Position numbers and translations under genes: made by a program
Shown: piece by piece, positions 34,245-43,636 of the stretch
Layout: each line of letters begins with the position of its first letter
Numbering within the stretch: position 1 is the first letter of the stretch
Assembly: GCA_022451235.1 (NCBI GenBank)
Contig: JAKUOA010000008.1
Location: 49,584-111,040, forward strand
Direction: 5' to 3'
Length of the DNA: 61,457 nt
Source of the DNA: Candidatus Thalassarchaeum sp.
GTDB taxonomy: Archaea; Thermoplasmatota; Poseidoniia; Poseidoniales; Thalassarchaeaceae
The notes under the pieces: model-generated
Database searches by the model: none
Seen by the model: only the letters and a program-made list of their open reading frames with translations
What the model was told of the DNA's origin: nothing

Positions 34245-34541
34245 TCATAGATTTGTACTGAGTGTTAGAAGTTCTGATTGACCAGGATCTATGACACATA
34301 ATGCACTGACAGGGAAGGGTTTGGCGCAAGCAGCACCTAACTGTCTGTTAACCAACATAACTTGATGAATCGGAATATCGGGATGGCTTGTTGTCAAACT
34401 GGAAATGTAATCCTCTGGGCAGTTTGCGGCTACCAATACCAATCTAGCGTCCCCTTTATTGCAGGCACTTATTGTTTGGCGCTGACCGAATAGTACATTT
34501 CCTGTGCTAATTCCTTGTTTCAATTGTCTTGCTAGATCCAT
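34245..34541 (-). CDS. rpl30e: Ribosomal protein eL30 (L30e)
   Basis: 98 aa. The ARLVLVAANCPEDY core and the position directly after rpoA2 are both typical. Confidence 0.85.
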   Translation of the reverse strand: MDLARQLKQGISTGNVLFGQRQTISACNKGDARLVLVAANCPEDYISSLTTSHPDIPIHQVMLVNRQLGAACAKPFPVSALCVIDPGQSELLTLSTNL

Positions 34542-34554
34542 TAAAATTCCTCCA

Positions 34555-36135
34555 TCAAGCTTCTACCTCTTCTGGTATGTAGTACAATTCAACACTACCT
34601 GTACCCAAGGCCACTGGTTGACCAACAATGATATTCTCTGTAACACCACGAAGATGGTCTCTTTCCCCAATAATACCCGCTCGTAACAGGTGGTTTACGG
34701 ATACCTCGAAGGCGGACCTCGCTAGGATGCTATGCTTGGTTCCACTAACACCATGACGTCCGATTGCTCTAACTGCTCCTTCACTTGTCATTACATCGGC
34801 CACAGTGATTAAGTGTCTAGTGTCGACATCCAGACCTGCTCCCTCAAGAGTATCTTTCATCTCATTAACGATAGCTTGTCTTGCAGCTTCTACTCCCAGA
34901 TATCCATATATTTCATTGATATTATTTGTGTAGGTTCGGCCTCGGTCTACACCATCAAACAAACTGACCTTGGCTAAGTTTGAACCAATAGTAGCGATGT
35001 AATACTCACCAGTATCCTTGTTTGGACCTTGAACATTTGCTCTGACAATATCAGGCAGACCCTTTAGCCTGAGTTTCTTGACCTTGTCTTCTAATTGTAA
35101 TAGAGCGGTGTAGGTTGGTGGATCATTGGCTAATGTGGCTAAATCATCTTCTTTTGTCACACCAGGGATTACTTTCAGAACCTTAGGCTTGTCTTCATTA
35201 TCTGCCTGAATGTAAAGTCGAAGTGCTTTCTGTAACTTATCTCTGACCTCTGCACCAGACATTTTCTTCAAGCGTAGGTTAGAGGTATTCAGCTCAAGAT
35301 TAAGATGCCTTTGGGCAACATCGACATCGATAGAAGCAATATCGCGAGTCGTTGTTGTTTCTATTGCGGCGGCAATCGCCTGAACTTTCTTCTCATTGGT
35401 ACGAAGTGGTTTCTTTTTCGAGTCATTCTCATTTAGGTAAACTAGCATTGTAGGGGTTTTAGGCACCTTTCTTGCATCTACTATCTCTATAACACGAGGA
35501 AGACCTTGTGTGACGTTTACCGTAGCGACACCAGCATAGTGGAAGGTACGCATAGTCATTTGAGTACCTGGTTCACCGATCGATTGAGCGGTGGTAATTC
35601 CAACTGCCTCGTGTGGGTCAACACGTGACATTTTCATTTCCGAAGAGGCACTAGTTACTACCTTACGAGCCTCGGATGCGGTCAGTTTCTTCTTACCCCT
35701 AGAGAGTAAGCCGTTGACAAGATCGTTGATTGTTTTAGGTGTAATTCGGATGTTTTCCTTTTCCGCTGCATCTGAAAGGCTAGAGAACATCGGATTCTCA
35801 ATATCCAAATCACGATGAATTTGACGCATCTTGTCTTCCGAGTCGTATTCTTGCAATGGAAGAACACTCTTCTTTCTGCGTCGCGTAGCAACACGACGTC
35901 GGATCAATGTCTTCTCCGTCGCTTGCACCTTCTGAGCGGCCTTTGTAGAGCCTTGAATTACCTCAGAAATTTTCTGTGCCATACCAGAATCGGTAGCACA
36001 AATTTGTGCAATCTCTCCAGCCGCCAATACCTTAACATCGTCCCATTTGCGATCATCGGCAAGACGGTGCGCATATTCCTCGGCGATTCCGAGATCCATG
36101 AGTTTCTTCTTGGTCGCACTCTTGACTACCATCAC
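34555..36135 (-). CDS. rpoA2: DNA-directed RNA polymerase subunit A'' with an N-terminal extension of about 120 aa
   Basis: [21 protein letters not shown] and downstream A'' motifs. That motif begins near residue 183, so the N-terminal extension is long. Confidence 0.9.
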
Positions 36136-39100
36136 TCATCACCTCCGAGAGCATCATCTAGAACCTTAGTGATATCAAATGGAAGTCCCTTTCGACTTCT
36201 TGCTGGGTCAATTCCATCTTCACCATATTCGAATTGGATGATTCTGTCAGCAGTATTTCTTACTGAACCATTTTCGTCTTCAGACACCTTAAGATCGTCC
36301 ATAGCATTGATTAGACGTCGCTGCATATATCCTGACTTAGATGTACGAACCGCAGTATCAACCAAAGATTCTCGGCCAGATACTGATAGCATGAAGAATT
36401 CTGTTGGTTGAAGGCCTTGCTTGAATGAAGAAGAAACGAACCCCTTTTCTTCGGCTCCTTTTACGCCACGAGGGAAGTGCGATAGTACTCTGTCTTGGTA
36501 TCCTCGTTCTAGTCTCTTTCCACGAACCTTTGGTTGACCAATGGAACCAGCCATCATTGCTAAGTTGTCCATGGAACCACGAGCACCAGAAGTTGCCATA
36601 ATTACCGCAGAGTTATCCTCACCGAGGTAGGACTTTGCTACATTACCAGATTCTGCCTTAGCAGAGTCTAGAATCTGTAGGATGTTCTCTTCAAGTGTCT
36701 CAATTGGAGTTCTTCCTGGTCGTGTCTCATATCCACGTCCACTTTTACCAAACTTTGCTAATTCAGCGTCTACTTCGTCGCTAGCTCGGACATTGATATC
36801 GGAGATTTCTTTAATTGCCGCGAGGGGTAAGTCTTCGTCATCAATTCCAGTGGTGAATCCAAGGGATGTACAAATTGCGATTGTCATCTTTGTCATTCGG
36901 TTTAGGAATTCGGCCCCTTTGTCAGTGCCATGAGTTTGAACTACCGCGTCCAGTAACCTACCGTCTTCAGCTCCAATACCCCGCTTGTCAATCGTACCAC
37001 TTACAAGACCCTTTGAAGTGACATTGACTTCGTCTCCACTTCTGCTGGTGTAGTTTAGTTTGAACCCAGCAGGAACAATTAGACTGAGGAGATCGGCACC
37101 CCTGTACCCAACAATGCCATCCTTGCTAGTAACTTCTTCAGGCATATCGCCATCCCAGCCAACGGAACCCAATACTTCCATGGCCAATTCCTTAGGTATT
37201 ACTCTCTCACCATGAGTTAGTAGATAAGCGCCCGAAATATGGTCATGAATTCCTCCAATTACAGCACCTCCATATCTTGGTGTAATGATATGCTCCTGAA
37301 CTCGCATCAGAATCTTTGCTTCGGCTCTTGCCTCTTCAGATTGAATTACGTGGAGGTTCATTTCGTCTCCATCGAAATCAGCATTGTAAGGTGTACAATC
37401 TGCTAGATTGAAGCGGAAAGTCTTTCCGGGCATGACACGAACTTCGTGAACTAACATAGACATCCTGTGAAGAGAGGGCTGTCGGTTGAAGATTGCAACA
37501 TCACCGTCGATGAGGTGCCTTTCGACTACAACACCCGGGCGAGGGTTTCCATCCCTGTCGTAATTTGACAGGCGGTCTTCCACTTCAGTTCGGTATACAT
37601 TACCGTGCTCGTCTTCCACCGCAGGACTGCCACAATGAGGGCAGTACACTTCAAGGTGCTCTGGGAAAAATTCGTCTGGGTTGTTCTTTTCCCATACCCA
37701 ACGGTTGTGAATGATAGCTCGAGGGTCTTCTTCTTCGAGTGGTCGACCGTTTTCGTCCTCACCACGAAGGTTGCAAATTGTAGTATCAAGATCTACTGAC
37801 CAAACATCCTCAAGATCTCCAAATTCGTTCCTTCGCATTTGCTTCATTAGTTCAAGACCTGGAAGGAAGTTAGGTGCAGGAAGTACTGTGTTGAGGTCCG
37901 GTCGATATCCATCATACGGCTCTTCGTCGCTTCCACCGTGACAATCTGGATTTAAACAGCGGAATCCGGCCCAAATGTACTTCGTTCTATCAGTAATTCT
38001 GACTCGGAAAGTGTCTCCACGAATAATATAGTTAACACCAGGGTGAACATCTGGCCCACGTAGAATCATTCTTCGTAATTGTTCTCGGTTCCTGCTTGTT
38101 GCTCGGATTGGAACAGTCAATTCTTTAGCAGTTCGAACTGGGACACCTACCTCGTTGATTCCAAGATTTGGATCTGGGCTGATTACTGTTCGGGCACAGA
38201 AGTTAACTCGCTTTCCTGAAAGGTTGCTCCGGAATCTTCCTTCCTTCCCCTTCAGACGTTGTGAAAGAGTCTTCAGAGGCCTTCCTGATCGGTGTCTTGC
38301 TGGTGGAATGCCACTTGTCTGATTATCGAAATATGTCGTGACGTGATATTGCAACAACTCCCAAAGATCTTCCACAATCAATTGTGGAGCTCCTGCGTCA
38401 CGGTTTTCACGGAGACGTTGGTTGATTCTGAGAACGTCGACCATTTTGTGAGTAAGATCGTCTTCAGAGCGATCGCCACTATCTAATGTGATTGATGGAC
38501 GAACTGTAATCGGAGGTACTGGAAGAACCTTCATTATCGACCACTCAGGTCTACTGGAATTACTATCCATTCCAAGGAAAATTAGGTGTTCGTCTGGAAT
38601 CTTTTCTAGCCATTCACGGATATCTCTTGCATTGAGCTTGTGTTCTCCCTTGTCGGCTTTCTTCTCCTTGAAAGTAGAAGGCTTGTCAAGGAGGATTTTA
38701 CCTTGCTCTGCCCCACAGTGCATGCAGATTGCACGCTTGGCACTGGAACATTCCTTCTCAATTTCCTTGATGATTTTCTTGAATTCAGTCGAACCAACGC
38801 CATGTTTTTGCATTACGTCGTGAACACGGTCGCGGTAGTAATCTTGTTCCGACTTTTCTGGATCTAGAGGGTGAGTATCTGTTGCACTGTGCAATAGAAT
38901 TTGGCTACATTCGTTGCAAGTGCACTTCAGAGCCGTCTTGATAAGAGGGGTGAATCCAATGTGAATTACTGGTAGTTCAAGAGCAATGTGACCAAAGTGA
39001 CTAGGGCACTCGTCATGCTTGTTTCCACATGTCTCACAGCGAATACCTGGGTCAATAACTCCCATTTTAGGATCCATGAGACCCTGCTTGAATGCGTGTC

Positions 39101-39230
39101 CATCATCCTTGTATGTATCAGCCGTCTTGACTTCCACAGCAGACATTTTCCGGATCTCGTTTGGATCCATTAGGCTGAACTTAATCGAATCTATCCTCTT
39201 TGGGATTTTTGCTACTCCACGGGCACTCAT
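36132..39230 (-). CDS. rpoA1: DNA-directed RNA polymerase subunit A'
   Basis: Zinc motifs CETCGN...[23 protein letters not shown] catalytic loop. 1032 aa, with an internal insertion. Confidence 0.95.
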
Positions 39231-42200
39231 CTTCGGTCCTCCAATTCAAGGCGCATAGCCACTCCAAGACTCTTCATTTCGTCCAGAAGTAACTTGAAAG
39301 CATAGGAAGTTTGGACAGAATGAACGTCTGCTCGATCTCCACAGACCGGGCAGACGGGTGTCCTCCTCTTCCAATCATAATATGCAATATGTCCACAGCC
39401 GCTATTATTACAAACCATAAGTGGCCAACCATCTGATTCATCGAGTAACCTGTCCTTGATTACCATCGATGCACCGTGTGCAATCAAACAGTCTCTTTCC
39501 ATTTCTCCAAACCTCAGACCACCTTGTCGAGCACGGCCTTCCGTTGGTTGGCGAGTTAGAATTTGTACACGACCACGACTGCGAGCATGTAACTTACTAC
39601 TAACTAGGTGGTGTAGCCTCTGATAGAAAATCACTCCAGTGAATATCTCGGCTTCAAATGCTTCTCCTGTTTCCCCATTCATCATAGGCTCACGGCCTGT
39701 ATGGGCAAATCCATTTCGAAGTAGTCCTGCGCGAAGAGAATCTTCCTTCTCGCCACCAAATGCAGTACCGTCGATTTGACGACCCTCCATCGAACCAACC
39801 TTTCCTCCGATCATTTCCAGAACGTGGGCTACGGTCATTCGAGATGGGATAGCGTGCGGATTGATAATCAAGTCAGGCACGATTCCATCAACGGTGAAAG
39901 GCATGTCCTTTTCATCTACAAGTCGACCGATTATACCCTTCTGACCGTGTCGACTTGCAAACTTATCACCAAGTTCAGGTATCTTTTCGGTTCTAAGTGA
40001 AATTCGACAGAGTAAACCGGAATCTAGAGACTCGGTCACGTACACGTTGTCTACCCATCCTGATTCGCCATTACGAACCATCATTGATGACTCTCGACGC
40101 TCCTGAGCTTGCAAGAAATGTCCGTGAGATTCTTCGAGGAATCTTGGAGGACTTGTCTTTCCTACTAATACTCCGGTCTCGGCTCCAATACTTGACAAGT
40201 GAGTTTCTGGTGTGGGTAGCCCATCTCTCTCGAGATGGACATAACTCTCCCATGATTTCAGACCTTTGACTTCATCAAGGCCCGTTCCTGGAATCTCAAT
40301 TTGTTCTTTCTGACCACCAGGGAACTGTTTGTTCTCAGCATTATATGTGCGTATGAAAGATGAACGGCCAAGTGAACGCTCGACTGCGGCTCTATTCATT
40401 ACAACAGCGTCTTGCATATTGTATCCGTGATGACTCAATATAGCCACTACGAAATTCTGCCCGCCTGGCCTCTGTGCGAAATTGGTGGTCTTCATTGAAC
40501 GAGTACCGACAATTGATTGTTGAGGATAATGCATTACGTGCATACGAGTGTCTGGCCTTAATCTGTAGTTCGCACTTGGAAGACCGAGACTTTGCTTGAC
40601 CATTGCAGTACCGCCAGTAACTCTCGGTGTGGAATTATGCTCTGGGTAAGGTACGAGTGATGCACACACCCCTAGAATTAGTTGTGGGTCTATCTCAACA
40701 TGAGTGTATGCGAGAACAGTATTCTGCCTCTTTTGTTTTCTTAGAATAGCCTCAAGATCCTCTTGATAGTAGTTGAGAGGTACACTGAAATTTTCTATCT
40801 CTGAATCGCCATTGGGCATCTTGACTTCTACTCGCAACTTTGCTTTCTTTATCTGGGATTTACCTAGGTTTACCCATTCTACAGAAGCCGGATTTATTGG
40901 GCGGCCATGCTTGGGAGAAATAGATGGTAAATCAAATGGACGAGGGGCGATAAGTAGGTCTTCCTCTTCTTCTGCGTCAACCCATTCAACAACACCATTT
41001 GACACTAAATCGGAAAAAGTCCATTCTCCGGATTTAATTAAGTCGATGTGATCTTTTGATAGTGCTAAATCTCCATCTTGAATAACCAACAATGGCCTTA
41101 GTATTCGACCTCTATCGGTATTGATGAAAATATCCCTATTGGCACCATCATAGCGAATGCTTACCTCGGGGCGGATTCGCCCTTGGCGCCTTCGAGCCTT
41201 GAATTGATTGACTAATCTTGTTGCATTTTTATGCAATCCAAAAATATCCCCATTGACGTGGACACGGAATCCTTCTGCCCATCCTGATGGAGAAGAATCC
41301 ACGCCTGCTTCACTCAGAAGTTGCTTTACTTCATTTTCATGAACCTCTTCAGAGACGTCTATCATTTGAGAAGCGTTCTTTACTAAGCCGCAGTTTTGGC
41401 CTTCGGGAGTTTCGTTAGGACAAAGTCTACCCCACTGAGTGGGGTGTAGGTCTCGAGCTTCGAAGTGTGGTTGACTGCGAACTAAAGGACTTGTGACCCT
41501 GCGCATGTGAGACAAAGCGGCAAGATAGGTTGTTCTGTCTAGAAGTTGGCTGACACCGCTGCGTCCACCAACCCAATTTCCAGTCGCCAAAGCGTGCATG
41601 ATTTTCTGAGTTAGAACGTCTGGTCGCAAACAGGCATTAATTCTTAGCTCGCGCTTTCTGTTGTGGTGACGCTCTAGTTGGTACTTTAGGTCACGTGCAA
41701 GTTGTTGCATACTTACTCGGAATAAATCCTCAACTAAGTCGCCAGCCAGTCTAACTCTCTTGTTAGCATAGTGGTCCTTGTCGTTAGGGTCTTGGTCTGT
41801 AATCGCCATCTCAAGTACTTGGCGAACGATTCGACCGAGAAATATGGCTTTCTTTTCTCGATGTTCAGGGGCAGAACCAAGGTGCGGCAGGAGTTCCTTG
41901 TCTAATAAATTCTGAATCCTGGCCTCTCTGTATTCCTTTTGTTGACCTGCGGCGAATTTCTTCTCTAGCCACTGTAGTGCTTCTTCCGTGTTCTCGACAT
42001 TGTACTCCTCGTTGTCTTTGGTCTCGTTTAGATTGGCAACAGTATATTTCATTGCTTCAGCAGGACCTGCAATTGCAGTAAAAATCTCCTTATCATTTTC
42101 CATACCCAGTGAGCGCATTAGCAATACAACAGGGATTGGAGTTGTTCCAGCACTTGGGATCTTGACCATCAGCATCCCGTCGCGGCGCTTTTCGATATTC

Positions 42201-42913
42201 AACGGCTTTCTAACTCCGTCTTTTTGAGAGAAAATCTTGGCAACCTCAGTCTCGTGAGCATATTTCTTGTTCTTTTCCACAGTCACGCGGTTTGGTGCTA
42301 AGTCTTCCATTGAGATTAACACTCGCTCTGTTCCGTTAATGATGAAATATCCACCTGGATCTAGAGGATCCTCTCCTGCTCGGCGAAGTAACTCGGTTAG
42401 TCTGTCAGCATCTTCTGTCGAAGTATGAGGAGATAATTTCCTATCATCATCGGCACACAGGTGAGATATGTGATTAGCGTGTACATTACATTGAGCCGAA
42501 CGAACCATGATTGGAAGATTTCCTATGTGGACCCTTTCTTCCACATCAGGTGTTGGTTTATCGTCATGGATAATCTGGAAGTCTAAGTGTACTGGTGAGA
42601 AATATGTTAGTTTTCGAAGCCTGCACTCTAATGGAGTTGCTGGGTGCTCTGCTCCATTTGCCTCCTTAATTGTGGGGCGACCGAGATGAATATTCTTCAA
42701 GCGGATAACTATCTCCTTGTCTAGAACGTCGAGTTTGATTATTCCACCATCATCGTCTTCAATTACCTCATCTGTTCCAATTCTAATATTACGAACGATT
42801 TTTTCCATTCGACTTACTTTACCATCAGTGGATGGGATGCAATCATTGTAAGACGCTAATTGATGATTAACCAGGCTTCTTTGTTGAAAATAACTCTCTA
42901 CGATTTCCTTCAT
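39227..42913 (-). CDS. rpoB: DNA-directed RNA polymerase subunit B (unsplit)
   Basis: GYFIINGTERV, GDKFASRHGQKG, FGEMERD and a C-terminal zinc ribbon CNNSGCGH...CPVCG. Single 1228-aa ORF. Confidence 0.95.
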   Translation of the reverse strand: MKEIVESYFQQRSLVNHQLASYNDCIPSTDGKVSRMEKIVRNIRIGTDEVIEDDDGGIIKLDVLDKEIVIRLKNIHLGRPTIKEANGAEHPATPLECRLRKLTYFSPVHLDFQIIHDDKPTPDVEERVHIGNLPIMVRSAQCNVHANHISHLCADDDRKLSPHTSTEDADRLTELLRRAGEDPLDPGGYFIINGTERVLISMEDLAPNRVTVEKNKKYAHETEVAKIFSQKDGVRKPLNIEKRRDGMLMVKIPSAGTTPIPVVLLMRSLGMENDKEIFTAIAGPAEAMKYTVANLNETKDNEEYNVENTEEALQWLEKKFAAGQQKEYREARIQNLLDKELLPHLGSAPEHREKKAIFLGRIVRQVLEMAITDQDPNDKDHYANKRVRLAGDLVEDLFRVSMQQLARDLKYQLERHHNRKRELRINACLRPDVLTQKIMHALATGNWVGGRSGVSQLLDRTTYLAALSHMRRVTSPLVRSQPHFEARDLHPTQWGRLCPNETPEGQNCGLVKNASQMIDVSEEVHENEVKQLLSEAGVDSSPSGWAEGFRVHVNGDIFGLHKNATRLVNQFKARRRQGRIRPEVSIRYDGANRDIFINTDRGRILRPLLVIQDGDLALSKDHIDLIKSGEWTFSDLVSNGVVEWVDAEEEEDLLIAPRPFDLPSISPKHGRPINPASVEWVNLGKSQIKKAKLRVEVKMPNGDSEIENFSVPLNYYQEDLEAILRKQKRQNTVLAYTHVEIDPQLILGVCASLVPYPEHNSTPRVTGGTAMVKQSLGLPSANYRLRPDTRMHVMHYPQQSIVGTRSMKTTNFAQRPGGQNFVVAILSHHGYNMQDAVVMNRAAVERSLGRSSFIRTYNAENKQFPGGQKEQIEIPGTGLDEVKGLKSWESYVHLERDGLPTPETHLSSIGAETGVLVGKTSPPRFLEESHGHFLQAQERRESSMMVRNGESGWVDNVYVTESLDSGLLCRISLRTEKIPELGDKFASRHGQKGIIGRLVDEKDMPFTVDGIVPDLIINPHAIPSRMTVAHVLEMIGGKVGSMEGRQIDGTAFGGEKEDSLRAGLLRNGFAHTGREPMMNGETGEAFEAEIFTGVIFYQRLHHLVSSKLHARSRGRVQILTRQPTEGRARQGGLRFGEMERDCLIAHGASMVIKDRLLDESDGWPLMVCNNSGCGHIAYYDWKRRTPVCPVCGDRADVHSVQTSYAFKLLLDEMKSLGVAMRLELEDRR

Positions 42914-42925
42914 ACTATCAACTCC

Positions 42926-43513
42926 TCAAGCACTCTCCACAATTAGTCTGAACGCTGTACTTGAACCAGCAACTCGACTATATCGAATTACTCGGACTAC
43001 TCTGTTTGCAAGCCATCCTGCTGGTAAGTCCTCATTCTCAGACTCTACCTTTTCTTTGATGGCTTGAACTGCAGGATCGGTGATCAGAATCTTAGGCAAT
43101 AGCTCCTTTGCGAGTCTAACCCCTCCTGAATTGTCGGGGACCTCTAGACCCCAATGAGACAAAACAGCTGATTCGTCTTCTTCGGAGACCAACTCATGGT
43201 GCGGCACTAAGATGTGATTTAGTACATTAAAGCGATCATCACCTTGTGGTATGTCCATCATTTCCAGAGCTTTTCTTGAAATTGTTATTCTACCGGAGCG
43301 ACTGCGTCGACGAGAGGTGTTGTGCTCTCTGATAATGGTCATGATATTCTCTAGGGTAGCATCACTCATCGCGACTCCAGTCTTTTCAGACACTTCCTCA
43401 ACCGTCATTCTCTTGATTGCATCCATGTTTGCGTCGTCAGCGAGTTTGTGAGCATGTTCTGCATCGATGCCCAACTCGATTAGACGCTTTTTTGTCGAAC
43501 TCTTTACTGCCAT
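42926..43513 (-). CDS. rpoH: DNA-directed RNA polymerase subunit H (Rpb5-like) with an N-terminal extension of about 95 aa
   Basis: C-terminal HILVPHHELVSEEDE...ITDPAVQAIK...VVRVIRYSRVAG is the RpoH core. First gene of the rpoH-B-A'-A'' operon. Confidence 0.85.
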   Translation of the reverse strand: MAVKSSTKKRLIELGIDAEHAHKLADDANMDAIKRMTVEEVSEKTGVAMSDATLENIMTIIREHNTSRRRSRSGRITISRKALEMMDIPQGDDRFNVLNHILVPHHELVSEEDESAVLSHWGLEVPDNSGGVRLAKELLPKILITDPAVQAIKEKVESENEDLPAGWLANRVVRVIRYSRVAGSSTAFRLIVESA

Positions 43514-43562
43514 TTGCGCCGCCCCGATGCCCAGAAAACCGTGGGCCTGAGGCTTGGTCAGG

Positions 43563-43636
43563 CGGGCCTGGAGGGATTTGAACCCCCGGCCACCGGGTTA
43601 AAAGCCCGGCGCTCTACCTGACTAAGCTACAGGCCC
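43563..43636 (-). tRNA. tRNA-Lys (anticodon UUU), no encoded CCA
   Basis: Hand-folded. Acceptor GGGCCTG/CAGGCCC. D-arm GCTT/GAGC. Anticodon stem CCGGG/CCCGG with loop CTTTTAA. T-arm GGGGG-TTCAAAT-CCCTC. Discriminator G. Confidence 0.85.

Follow-up and report, generated by a model that had tools for sequence, protein, structure and literature searches.

Two polymerase subunits open with the same module

Why should two different subunits of one archaeal RNA polymerase begin with the same small domain? The question is raised by a 61,457-nucleotide stretch of DNA (the window) from Candidatus Thalassarchaeum sp., a member of the order Poseidoniales. Marine Group II archaea, in which this arrangement occurs, are abundant in the ocean, and the Poseidoniales organisms are uncultured. 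The minus-strand gene order in the window is tRNA-Lys, rpoH, rpoB, rpoA', rpoA'', and rpl30e, the latter being the last recognisable gene in the conserved cluster (Table 1). The first-pass annotation had read the N-termini of RpoH and RpoA'' as paralogous, helix-hairpin-helix (HhH)-like segments. A single BLASTP comparison bore out their homology, with 21/43 identities and 32/43 positives without gaps (E 4e-11), and a homologous module of ~63 aa opens both proteins (example peptide, LIELGIDAEHAHK). In RpoH, the module carries an N-terminal basic tail, MAVKSSTKKR. As set out below, we are highly confident of what the modules are, of their fold class, and of how they evolved.

A basic or low-complexity linker had been noted after each module, and charge analysis agreed that it is basic: 19 aa of RpoH (residues 64-82) carry a net charge of +7 and 30 aa of RpoA'' (residues 63-92) one of +10, and only 0.1% of 19-aa segments reach +7 in this acidic proteome. 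The tethers, of ~30 (RpoH) and ~60 (RpoA'') residues, are predicted to be unstructured, and the Arg/Lys-rich stretch between module and core is probably flexible. The core boundaries also matched the first-pass annotation. PF01191 and NF007129 start at residues 94-95 of RpoH, placed near 95 before; the RpoA'' core motif starts at residue 183 when counted from the GTG and at 182 when counted from the ATG, and the TIGR02389 model starts at residue 135. The RpoH core, which corresponds to the Rpb5 C-terminal assembly domain, exceeds the family model by ~24 residues.

Table 1. Positions of the rpo operon features in the window.
Feature	Coordinates	Strand	Basis or remark
tRNA-Lys(TTT)	43561..43636	-	ARAGORN; 47 nt upstream of rpoH ATG
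rpoH, whole gene	42926..43513	-	Product RpoH, 195 aa
RpoH residues 1-63, divergent (HhH)2 module, five predicted helices	43325..43513	-	BLASTP, AF2, Foldseek, hhalign, selection
RpoH residues 64-92, Arg-rich tether (NTSRRRSRSGRITISRKAL...)	43238..43324	-	Net charge
RpoH canonical core and stop codon	42926..43237	-	PF01191 95-191; NF007129 94-193
rpoB (fused B'/B'', 1228 aa)	39227..42913	-	Pfam Rpb2 domains 1-7
rpoA' (1032 aa)	36132..39230	-	Pfam Rpb1 domains 1-5
rpoA'', whole gene	34555..36135	-	Start in first-pass GTG numbering; RpoA'' 525 aa from ATG
RpoA'' residues 1-63, divergent (HhH)2 module	35944..36132	-	BLASTP, TGATG context, profiles A1/A2, tree
RpoA'' residues ~64-120, basic tether then acidic spacer	35773..35943	-	Net charge
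RpoA'' canonical core, trigger-loop motif, stop codon	34555..35772	-	TIGR02389 135-517, E 1e-123; PF04998
rpl30e (putative)	34245..34541	-	ORF list; assigned by sequence reading

The modules are part of the translated proteins

The 5' regions might have been mis-called, with the true starts lying downstream and the likeness stemming from recent recombination or from an untranslated leader common to both genes. Downstream in-frame Met residues in RpoH (e.g., M30 and M36) would allow this very improbable reading. However, the amino-acid sequence is conserved from residue 1, where the module stands in both RpoH and RpoA'' in 149/151 Poseidoniales genomes. The pN/pS of the RpoH module was 0.07-0.5, far below 1, and pS was near saturation. 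Many synonymous differences separate the RpoH and RpoA'' copies in this genome, which excludes recent gene conversion. The RpoA'' ATG at 36132 overlaps the rpoA' stop codon (TGATG), a classic coupling arrangement; read from this ATG, the protein begins MVVKSATKK, an N-terminus found in all relatives and parallel to the MAVKSSTKK of RpoH. The true RpoA'' start is almost certainly this ATG rather than the previously assigned GTG at 36135, a small correction. Metatranscriptome contigs cover the stretch of rpoH that encodes the module and run on as far as the tRNA, reaching ~43637 with none past 43643. With the confident fold prediction described below, conservation, selection, start context, and RNA coverage effectively refute a start downstream of the module, and the sequence comparisons confirmed the module as translated and under purifying selection. 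The tRNA-Lys is kept beside rpoH in 8/9 Poseidoniales loci and is probably co-transcribed with the rpoH operon.

The module is a divergent (HhH)2 domain

The AF2 model of the RpoH module (pLDDT 80) showed five helices (residues 6-14, 18-26, 30-34, 38-45, and 52-65). The best Foldseek matches were the (HhH)2 domains of FANCM/FAAP24, the RadA/RAD51 N-terminus, ERCC1/XPF, UvrC, and NusA (TMq 0.62-0.72), together with SAM folds (SARM1), every E-value being weak (0.17 or higher) owing to the small size of the domain. Comparison of profile A2 with Pfam-positive HHH_5 domains by hhalign gave a probability of 95.4% (E 1.7e-8), and the two hairpins were aligned in register. The HhH-like fold proposed from sequence thus held up under both structure prediction and profile comparison.

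The module resembles the N-terminal (HhH)2 domain of RAD51/RadA and Pfam HHH_5 (PF14520) in its five helices, two HhH units, and connector helix. The hairpins of human RAD51 read G-I-N and G-I-S, keeping only the first glycine, as in the module. In contrast to these families, the window's own modules have diverged so far that they fall below every HhH threshold in a Pfam search; they lie at the extreme N-terminus, carry a conserved basic tail, and sit on RNA polymerase subunits rather than on recombinases or repair enzymes.

The RpoA'' module is older than the RpoH copy

Poseidoniales genomes almost always contain exactly one copy on RpoH and one on RpoA''. Outside this order, the sister order included, the stop-to-stop frames of RpoH span only 80-138 aa, which agrees with the earlier view that canonical RpoH lacks the extension and supports its restriction to Poseidoniales. 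The same view of RpoA'' proved wrong, as a homologous N-terminal module was found in 85/159 sampled Thermoplasmatota genera; carriers include Methanomassiliicoccaceae, Methanomethylophilaceae, Saliniplasma, and Natronoplasma, with Methanomassiliicoccales among them. These direct homologues likewise stand at the N-terminus of RpoA'' and share invariant M1, T7, L11, and G15 and a near-invariant A21. Unlike the Poseidoniales copies, they are of an older, MAKKDT type, with one copy per genome in most Thermoplasmatota and none on RpoH. The elaboration of the polymerase, taken at first to be lineage-specific throughout, is therefore so only for the RpoH copy: because the RpoA'' module is widespread, what is new in Poseidoniales is that copy and the derived sequence type common to both subunits.

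In some lineages, two or three canonical Pfam HHH_5 domains with GIGPSKA hairpins (E 3e-22, 2e-30) are also present in the same RpoA'' extension, and in some a further domain of ~200 aa is added. The canonical HHH_5 domains mark the RpoA'' N-terminus as a site of repeated addition of DNA-binding HhH units.

A tree separated Poseidoniales RpoH and RpoA'' from a group of other RpoA'' and a third paralogue with support of 100/100. The Poseidoniales copies are thus mutually closest, pointing to duplication within the lineage. The comparison across Thermoplasmatota showed a history in which the N-terminal (HhH)2 module on RpoA'' is old; on the Poseidoniales stem, the sequence type switched from MAKKDT..ALxRRG to MxVKSxTKKxLxxLG, after which module and basic linker were duplicated onto RpoH. 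The acquisition is dated to Poseidoniales for RpoH, and the RpoA'' module is older. No published description of the N-terminal add-on was found in the literature.

Possible roles of the heads at the DNA-entry side

RpoH and RpoA'' adjoin in the lower jaw/shelf of the polymerase, where downstream DNA enters, the RpoA'' N-terminus being placed from the literature and general knowledge. As the two subunits are neighbours there, we propose that the heads on their basic tethers would work as two flexible arms. The arms would add sequence-independent contacts to the duplex DNA ahead of the polymerase and may aid open-complex formation or keep the enzyme on its template, a role that the eukaryotic Rpb5 jaw domain and Rpo13 of Sulfolobales would fill elsewhere. 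We put the probability that DNA or nucleic-acid contact is the primary role of the heads at roughly 0.5.

The bacterial alpha-CTD, which contacts DNA and factors, likewise belongs to the (HhH)2 class, is small and flexibly tethered, and is present in two copies per enzyme. It differs in that the window's modules have no PF03118 match, are N-terminal, lie on the jaw side rather than the upstream promoter side, and are carried by two different subunits on a highly basic tether. The alpha-CTD-like, non-specific DNA-binding role suggested by the first-pass annotation is plausible by this analogy.

Rpo5 has numerous contacts to the C-terminal portion of the largest subunit (PMC13257274). Two sources describe archaeal RpoH/Rpb5 as normally lacking an N-terminal jaw domain (PMC2675907; PMC3906176); the missing ~130-aa Rpb5 jaw is a downstream DNA binder, and in Sulfolobales its locus is occupied by Rpo13, proposed to touch downstream DNA (PMC2675907). 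Like the RpoH module, the eukaryotic jaw is an extra N-terminal domain on RpoH/Rpb5 at downstream DNA entry. However, the module has no Rpb5_N match, measures ~63 aa against ~130 aa, and belongs to a different fold class; its acquisition is independent and convergent. Rpo13 of Sulfolobales/Desulfurococcales is likewise a lineage-specific small helical element beside RpoH, but is a separate helix-turn-helix subunit, whereas the modules are fused (HhH)2 domains in two copies.

The heads could instead be permanently docked on the enzyme surface, shaping or stabilising the DNA-entry channel while binding neither DNA nor an outside partner themselves. One candidate for the docking site is a groove with positive charge, left open by the missing Rpb5 jaw (Korkhin et al., PMC2675907); it lies between the RpoH assembly domain and the clamp head and holds Rpo13 or the Rpb5 jaw elsewhere. 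The net acidic charge of the heads and the location of RpoH and RpoA'' in one structural module of the polymerase would suit such a fit. Nevertheless, we consider it unlikely: a rigidly docked domain needs no long, highly basic, predicted unstructured tether, the same head occurs on unrelated proteins without an RNAP core, and the groove is only presumed in the Poseidoniales enzyme.

Direct DNA contact by the heads also meets objections from their own features. The hairpins read GIDAEH, GIAEEY, and GVSEEH, and both lack two elements of the canonical G-h-G-x-K motif, its second glycine and its basic residue, which would argue against DNA contact. The closest predicted folds include protein-binding or heterodimerising (HhH)2 and SAM domains (NusA AR, ERCC1/XPF, FANCM/FAAP24, SARM1), which may point the same way. 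The net charge of the helical body, -5 to -7, speaks only weakly against DNA contact, since the whole proteome is acidic (mean -3.2 per 53 aa, with 35% of segments at or below -5). The first ~30 residues are almost invariant in both subunits and in the mobile-element copies described below, more than non-specific DNA binding usually needs, and this fits a specific protein partner.

These features bring in the main rival to DNA contact, namely that the heads are protein-protein interaction modules serving to dock partners. They might join each other, as in ERCC1-XPF and FANCM-FAAP24, or join the head of the third paralogue, bringing this factor to the lower jaw. The third carrier is a Poseidoniales-only protein of 363 aa that combines a coiled coil with a zinc ribbon and whose gene adjoins rpoF and ksgA; all three chromosomal carriers are present in every Poseidoniales genome. 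Neither this paralogue nor the copies on mobile-element-like contigs described below figured in the first-pass annotation. The head of the third paralogue, modelled independently, matched the RAD51 N-terminal domain and E. coli NusA AR (28-30% identity; rmsd 2.6-3.1 A for NusA AR). NusA AR1/AR2 are likewise acidic (HhH)2 domains on the transcription machinery, but they are C-terminal, tandem, and protein-binding, and their likeness to the module is structural rather than at sequence-family level.

A module search returned 56 matches among 1.84 billion representatives. Further carriers among these include P0172 (1292 aa), P0128, P0132, P0164, P0175, and the tandem-module P0131, on contigs that are ORFan-rich or have two flanking tyrosine-recombinase genes (integrase-associated). 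The module always stands at residue 1, heading otherwise unrelated proteins, and its first 30 residues are nearly invariant in every carrier. Mobile elements or viruses of Poseidoniales might use copies of the head to direct proteins of their own to the polymerase. However, a DNA-binding head would be equally portable, several of these carriers are singletons, and no copies were present in the IMG/VR viral contigs and GenBank phage records searched. The acidity of the helical body is no argument for docking, given how acidic the whole proteome is, and the ancestral RpoA'' module is single-copy in most Thermoplasmatota, so that head-to-head pairing was not the original role. We regard docking as possible but less likely, and retain DNA contact as the preferred role.

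A separate observation concerns rpoA', in which the Pfam matches are interrupted at ~340-560, with weak zinc-ribbon matches at 524-546. The interruption separates the match to Rpb1 domain 1 from that to domain 2 and corresponds to an inserted, zinc-ribbon-like segment.

RpoH and RpoA'' of Poseidoniales share a homologous N-terminal module

The first-pass annotation had recognized by eye a homologous segment at the N-termini of RpoH and RpoA''. BLASTP confirmed the relationship, aligning the two N-termini without gaps at 21 identities over 43 positions (E 4e-11). A profile of the Poseidoniales copies (A1) found this ~63-residue module, or head, in 149 of 151 genomes of the order, covering all 22 genera and all three families sampled, and nearly always once in a frame of ~200–250 aa (RpoH) and once in a frame of ~520–530 aa (RpoA'') per genome. 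Pairwise comparisons of rpoH genes gave a pN/pS of 0.07–0.5 for the module, with synonymous sites near saturation. The RpoH and RpoA'' copies in the genome of the window (G000) also differ at many synonymous positions, which led us to reject recent gene conversion between them. Taken together, the conservation, the low pN/pS and the synonymous differences show that the similarity of the modules is maintained by selection at the protein level, and not by recent recombination.

Translation starting downstream of the module, named at the outset as an objection, was rejected on the basis of the conservation in 149/151 genomes and the pN/pS values. The RpoA'' ORF is listed from a GTG at 36135; an ATG at 36132 shares bases with the rpoA' stop codon (TGATG) and yields the N-terminus MVVKSATKK, common to all relatives. 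The module-coding part of rpoH is covered by metatranscriptome contigs, which reach the tRNA-Lys gene but do not extend past it. An annotation artefact is effectively excluded. Tryptic digestion of the RpoH module would be predicted to release the peptide LIELGIDAEHAHK.

RpoH is a protein of 195 aa whose close relatives are labelled Thalassarchaeaceae or Poseidoniales (Marine Group II), and its Rpb5-type core starts at residue 94–95. PF01191 matched residues 95–191 (E 3.7e-13), so the Rpb5 C-terminal assembly domain is present. NF007129 matched residues 94–193 (E 7.6e-14) with 51 bits against an equivalog cut-off of 83, because the core is ~24 residues longer than the model; reading of the sequence placed the surplus segment at about EEDESAVLSHWGLEVPDNSGGVRLAKE. 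With its N-terminal extension of 92 aa, RpoH is not the assembly-domain-only form (~75–90 aa) of archaeal RpoH/Rpo5. For RpoA'', TIGR02389 matched residues 135–517 over model positions 6–365, including the trigger loop (E 1.3e-123; 412.7 bits, slightly below the equivalog cut-off of 420.65), and the trigger-loop motif begins at residue 182, numbered from the ATG.

Coordinates of the RNA polymerase cluster, its modules and the third module-bearing gene
Feature	Coordinates	Strand	Remark
Conserved cluster	34245-43636	minus	tRNA-Lys(TTT), rpoH, rpoB, rpoA', rpoA'', rpl30e
tRNA-Lys(TTT)	43561-43636	minus	
RpoH module	43325-43513	minus	
RpoH core	42926-43237	minus	~100 residues vs 76 NF007129 model positions
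RpoA'	36132-39230	minus	1032 aa
RpoA'' module	35944-36132	minus	
ORF of 335 aa	33206-34213	minus	after rpl30e; no recognized family
Third paralogue, 363 aa	G000 contig C26:33348-34439 (locus L086:2849-3937)	plus	outside the window

The module is a divergent (HhH)2 domain

The structure of the RpoH module was predicted with AlphaFold2 from a 31-sequence alignment, which gave five helices (residues 6–14, 18–26, 30–34, 38–45, and 52–65) at a pLDDT of 80. The model is a five-helix bundle of two helix-hairpin-helix (HhH) units and a connector helix. In a Foldseek search against the PDB, it matched the (HhH)2 domains of FANCM/FAAP24, RadA/RAD51, ERCC1/XPF, UvrC, and NusA with a TMq of 0.62–0.72 and weak E-values, the latter because the domain has only ~65 residues. 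SAM domains (SARM1, Scm, and Ph) were also among the matches, with a TMq of 0.62–0.69 and no sequence signal; at this size, SAM and (HhH)2 folds are hardly separable.

At the sequence level, a broader profile built jointly with the RpoA'' modules of other Thermoplasmatota (A2) was compared by hhalign with eight (HhH)2 segments of Pfam HHH_5-positive proteins, the targets being HHH_5 domains (PF14520) from other RpoA'' extensions. The comparison gave a probability of 95.4% (E 1.7e-8), with both hairpins in register. Weak matches of the A1 and A2 profiles were found to a canonical HhH protein (L026) and to the HhH region of LigA. L11, G15, A21, and L24 of the module occupy canonical HhH positions. 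Compared with the consensus h-x-x-h-x-G-h-G-x-x-x-A-x-x-h, the module has D, S, A or E in place of the second hairpin glycine, without a basic residue after it. Standard models did not recognize the domain. Pfam, searched at E up to 1, showed no HhH family on RpoH or RpoA'' of the window, the module was not reached by any sequence model of Pfam, NCBIfam or the PDB, and its profile gave nothing meaningful when searched against PDB chains (best E 0.63). From the predicted fold, the Foldseek neighbors, the hhalign result and the HhH positions, we assign the module to the (HhH)2 superfamily as a divergent member that forms a new subfamily of these domains. The HhH-type fold proposed from the sequence was thus borne out, though it lies below the Pfam HhH thresholds.

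Evolutionary history of the RpoH and RpoA'' modules

Both extensions had been taken for a lineage-specific elaboration, which holds for RpoH only. In 25 Thermoplasmatota genomes outside Poseidoniales, including eight from the sister order, the stop-to-stop frames of RpoH are only 80–138 aa long; the RpoH extension is therefore a clean synapomorphy of Poseidoniales. The RpoA'' module is far more widespread, as A2 matches were found in 254 of 401 Thermoplasmatota genomes and in 85 of 159 genera, usually one per genome outside Poseidoniales. Canonical RpoA'' forms have 53–72 residues between the start and the trigger loop (L057, L059, and L060), versus 146–175, 284 or 391–443 residues in many other Thermoplasmatota, and most long forms start with a clearly homologous module, whose pattern is MAKKDTxxALxRRGI..A.KLA. 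Across the joint alignment, four positions (M1, T7, L11, and G15) do not vary. When the RpoA'' N-terminus of a non-Poseidoniales genome served as the query of a word-indexed homologue search, only near relatives were retrieved.

A scan of species-representative genomes yielded 64 loci, labelled Methanomassiliicoccaceae, Methanomethylophilaceae, Methanomethylophilus, Methanarcanum, Saliniplasma, Natronoplasma, and Thermoplasmatales or Thermoplasmata MAGs. The trigger-loop motif was present in 43 of the 64 frames; 21 loci lacked the standard motif, and the four complete ones that were read (L116, L130, L138, and L171) proved to be RpoA'' carrying a variant of the motif. In one locus, L173, masked sequence breaks the frame.

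Canonical HhH repeats occur at the same N-terminus in other lineages. Two HHH_5 domains follow the module in the RpoA'' of one lineage (E 3e-22), and three are found without a MAKKDT module in that of another (E 2e-30). RpoA'' proteins with two or three HHH_5 domains before the core are those of L055 (genome G156) and L061/L075 (G286/G320; DSCA01000044.1, Thermoplasmatales archaeon SpSt-1185); in L055, the domains stand behind an acidic, proline-rich leader and there is no MAKKDT head. In these proteins, HhH repeats are naturally fused to RNA polymerase. N-terminal RpoA'' extensions of ~390–440 aa were observed in the sister order (L062, L066, L071–L073, L076, and L077) and in two other lineages (L056 and L069). 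They include the head, followed by a conserved domain of ~200 aa and a second HhH-like stretch; the ~200-aa domain carries the motifs GVIWSLPEGYTI...FPINxKQFRYPFxGYVYLK...VKSARNYTQ and has no Pfam match.

In a maximum-likelihood tree, the RpoH and RpoA'' modules of Poseidoniales were split from a group of all other RpoA'' modules and a third paralogue; this split has 100/100 support, and its stem is long. The simplest history is that the old RpoA'' module changed its sequence type in the stem of Poseidoniales and was then duplicated, with a basic linker, onto RpoH.

A third chromosomal paralogue carries an ancestral-type head

A2 found three copies of the module per Poseidoniales genome. The third lies in a 363-aa protein that is single-copy, 61–90% identical across Poseidoniales, and was not detected outside the order. 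In G000, its gene is preceded by rpoF, a 200-aa ORF and, directly upstream, ksgA; KsgA is encoded upstream in 11 of 12 loci. Its head is of the ancestral type, MAKKDTYLALLRRGID, which is invariant in 20 orthologues; behind it come a long coiled coil, a zinc ribbon of the Cys4 type and a C-terminus that resembles a winged helix and contains the invariant block TGAGATKFNKWMKKAGL. HHH_5 matched this protein at E 0.034 with 15 bits, below the cut-off of 27. Its predicted structure shows the five-helix topology of the RpoH module, and Foldseek matched the model to the RAD51 N-terminal domain, NusA AR (28–30% identity), and SAM domains; the matches span ~55–75 aligned columns on small (HhH)2/SAM domains, consistent with the head. 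The 363-aa protein belongs to the same module family as the heads of RpoH and RpoA'', and may act as a factor of transcription or chromatin that is peculiar to this lineage.

Charge pattern and a proposed role at the incoming DNA

The usual role of the HhH family is sequence-independent DNA binding. Residues 1–10 of the module are basic (+4), its helical body is acidic (RpoH, -7; RpoA'', -5), and the linker, or tether, is strongly basic (+7 over RpoH 64–82 and +10 over RpoA'' 63–92). Charge arguments in this organism need caution because the proteome of G000 is markedly acidic, with a mean net charge of -3.2 per 53 aa over 745 long ORFs. As 35% of its 53-aa windows have a net charge of -5 or lower, the acidic body does not stand out, and we no longer regarded the acidity of the head as a decisive argument against DNA binding. 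In the same proteome, only 0.1% of 19-aa windows reach +7, making the linker extreme.

In the largest subunit, the C-terminal part is in contact with RpoH (PMC13257274). Archaeal Rpo5 lacks the ~130-aa jaw domain by which eukaryotic Rpb5 binds downstream DNA, and in Sulfolobales the locus of this jaw is filled by a separate subunit, Rpo13 (PMC2675907). Given this contact, the missing jaw and the Rpo13 precedent, the heads appear well placed to touch incoming duplex: anchored at RpoH and RpoA'' on their basic tethers, they would contact the DNA as it enters the polymerase. We favor tethered DNA-contacting arms, at a probability of roughly 0.5, on account of the usual role of HhH domains, the canonical HhH repeats at the same N-terminus elsewhere and the extreme charge of the tether. 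A permanently docked structural jaw, which would suit the same locus, seems improbable. The model of the eukaryotic Rpb5 jaw, RNA_pol_Rpb5_N, had no Pfam match on RpoH residues 1–93 at E up to 1.

Heads on mobile-element-like contigs and the docking alternative

An exhaustive phmmer search of the RpoH head against 1.84 billion representatives returned only 56 proteins; in all of them the match begins no later than residue 40, and in most at the very first residue. Besides fragments of RpoH and RpoA'', the carriers include unrelated proteins of 156–1292 aa, among them P0172 (1292 aa), the Cys-rich P0128, P0132, P0164, P0175 with a coiled coil, and P0131 with two tandem heads (loci L028, L029, and L080–L085). 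Headed by modules of the RpoH or the RpoA'' type, they lie on metagenome contigs that are ORFan-rich or have two tyrosine-recombinase genes alongside; P0128 is flanked by two such genes and occurs on seven contigs. Pfam and PHROGs were uninformative on these carriers and their neighbors, save for a thymidylate-synthase-like PHROG and two Phage_integrase genes. Neither P0172 nor the module profile matched IMG/VR viral contigs, and P0172 matched no GenBank phage record; we therefore term the carriers mobile-element-like and not viral.

A tRNA gene is a typical kind of integration target. The tRNA-Lys(TTT) gene lies ~47–50 nt upstream of rpoH in eight of nine Poseidoniales loci (the window, L002, L004, L007, L011–L014, and L018), and RNA contigs join the two genes. 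It might serve as an integration site, which might explain the capture of RpoH-type heads by integrase-bearing elements; no tRNA or att remnants were found in the carrier contigs checked.

The main rival to DNA-contacting arms holds that the heads are a protein-docking handle. In its favor, the N-terminal 30 residues are near-invariant, the hairpins lack basic residues, some fold neighbors bind proteins or heterodimerise, each genome has three chromosomal carriers, and copies of the head occur on mobile-element-like contigs. We regard it as possible but less probable than DNA-contacting arms. A fuller version is more tentative still: the heads would serve the Poseidoniales transcription machine as a dedicated docking handle, those of RpoH and RpoA'' pairing with each other or with the ancestral-type head of the 363-aa protein; the latter would be a lineage-specific factor recruited by the polymerase, and integrating elements and viruses would have copied heads to reach or subvert the host polymerase, where the tRNA-Lys gene ~50 nt from rpoH may have helped the capture of the RpoH type. 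If docking were true, the heads would represent a new host–virus interface in uncultured marine archaea.

Comparison with known polymerase decorations

Archaeal RNA polymerase serves as a simplified model for eukaryotic Pol II, and descriptions of RpoH give it the assembly domain only. A full-text literature search found no description of N-terminal HhH extensions of RpoH or RpoA'', and a 2026 review of small-subunit evolution covers only Rpo6 and Rpo8. The module is thus a strongly conserved, undescribed decoration of a core transcription enzyme. The Rpb5 jaw, Rpo13 and the bacterial alpha-CTD are functionally closest to it, but by sequence it belongs to none of them. The likeness to the alpha-CTD is functional and by analogy only: RNA_pol_A_CTD (PF03118) had no match on RpoH or RpoA'' of the window, and its one match (E 1e-5) fell on a canonical HhH repeat of the L055 RpoA''.

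As tethered DNA-contacting arms, the heads would join the Rpb5 jaw and Rpo13 in marking the DNA-entry side as a place of repeated innovation. An abundant, uncultured ocean lineage independently placed an N-terminal domain on RpoH where eukaryotes carry the Rpb5 jaw, and the neighboring A'' subunit is decorated with HhH units across a whole phylum. Head and tether offer concrete constructs for the effect of extra downstream contacts on initiation or processivity.

Two further observations concern the cluster itself. The Pfam Rpb1 domain 2 match of RpoA' is interrupted at residues ~340–560 by an insertion of ~150–200 aa, which accounts for the length of this subunit and has weak zinc-ribbon matches at residues 524–546. 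The 335-aa ORF that follows rpl30e occupies the usual place of nusA.
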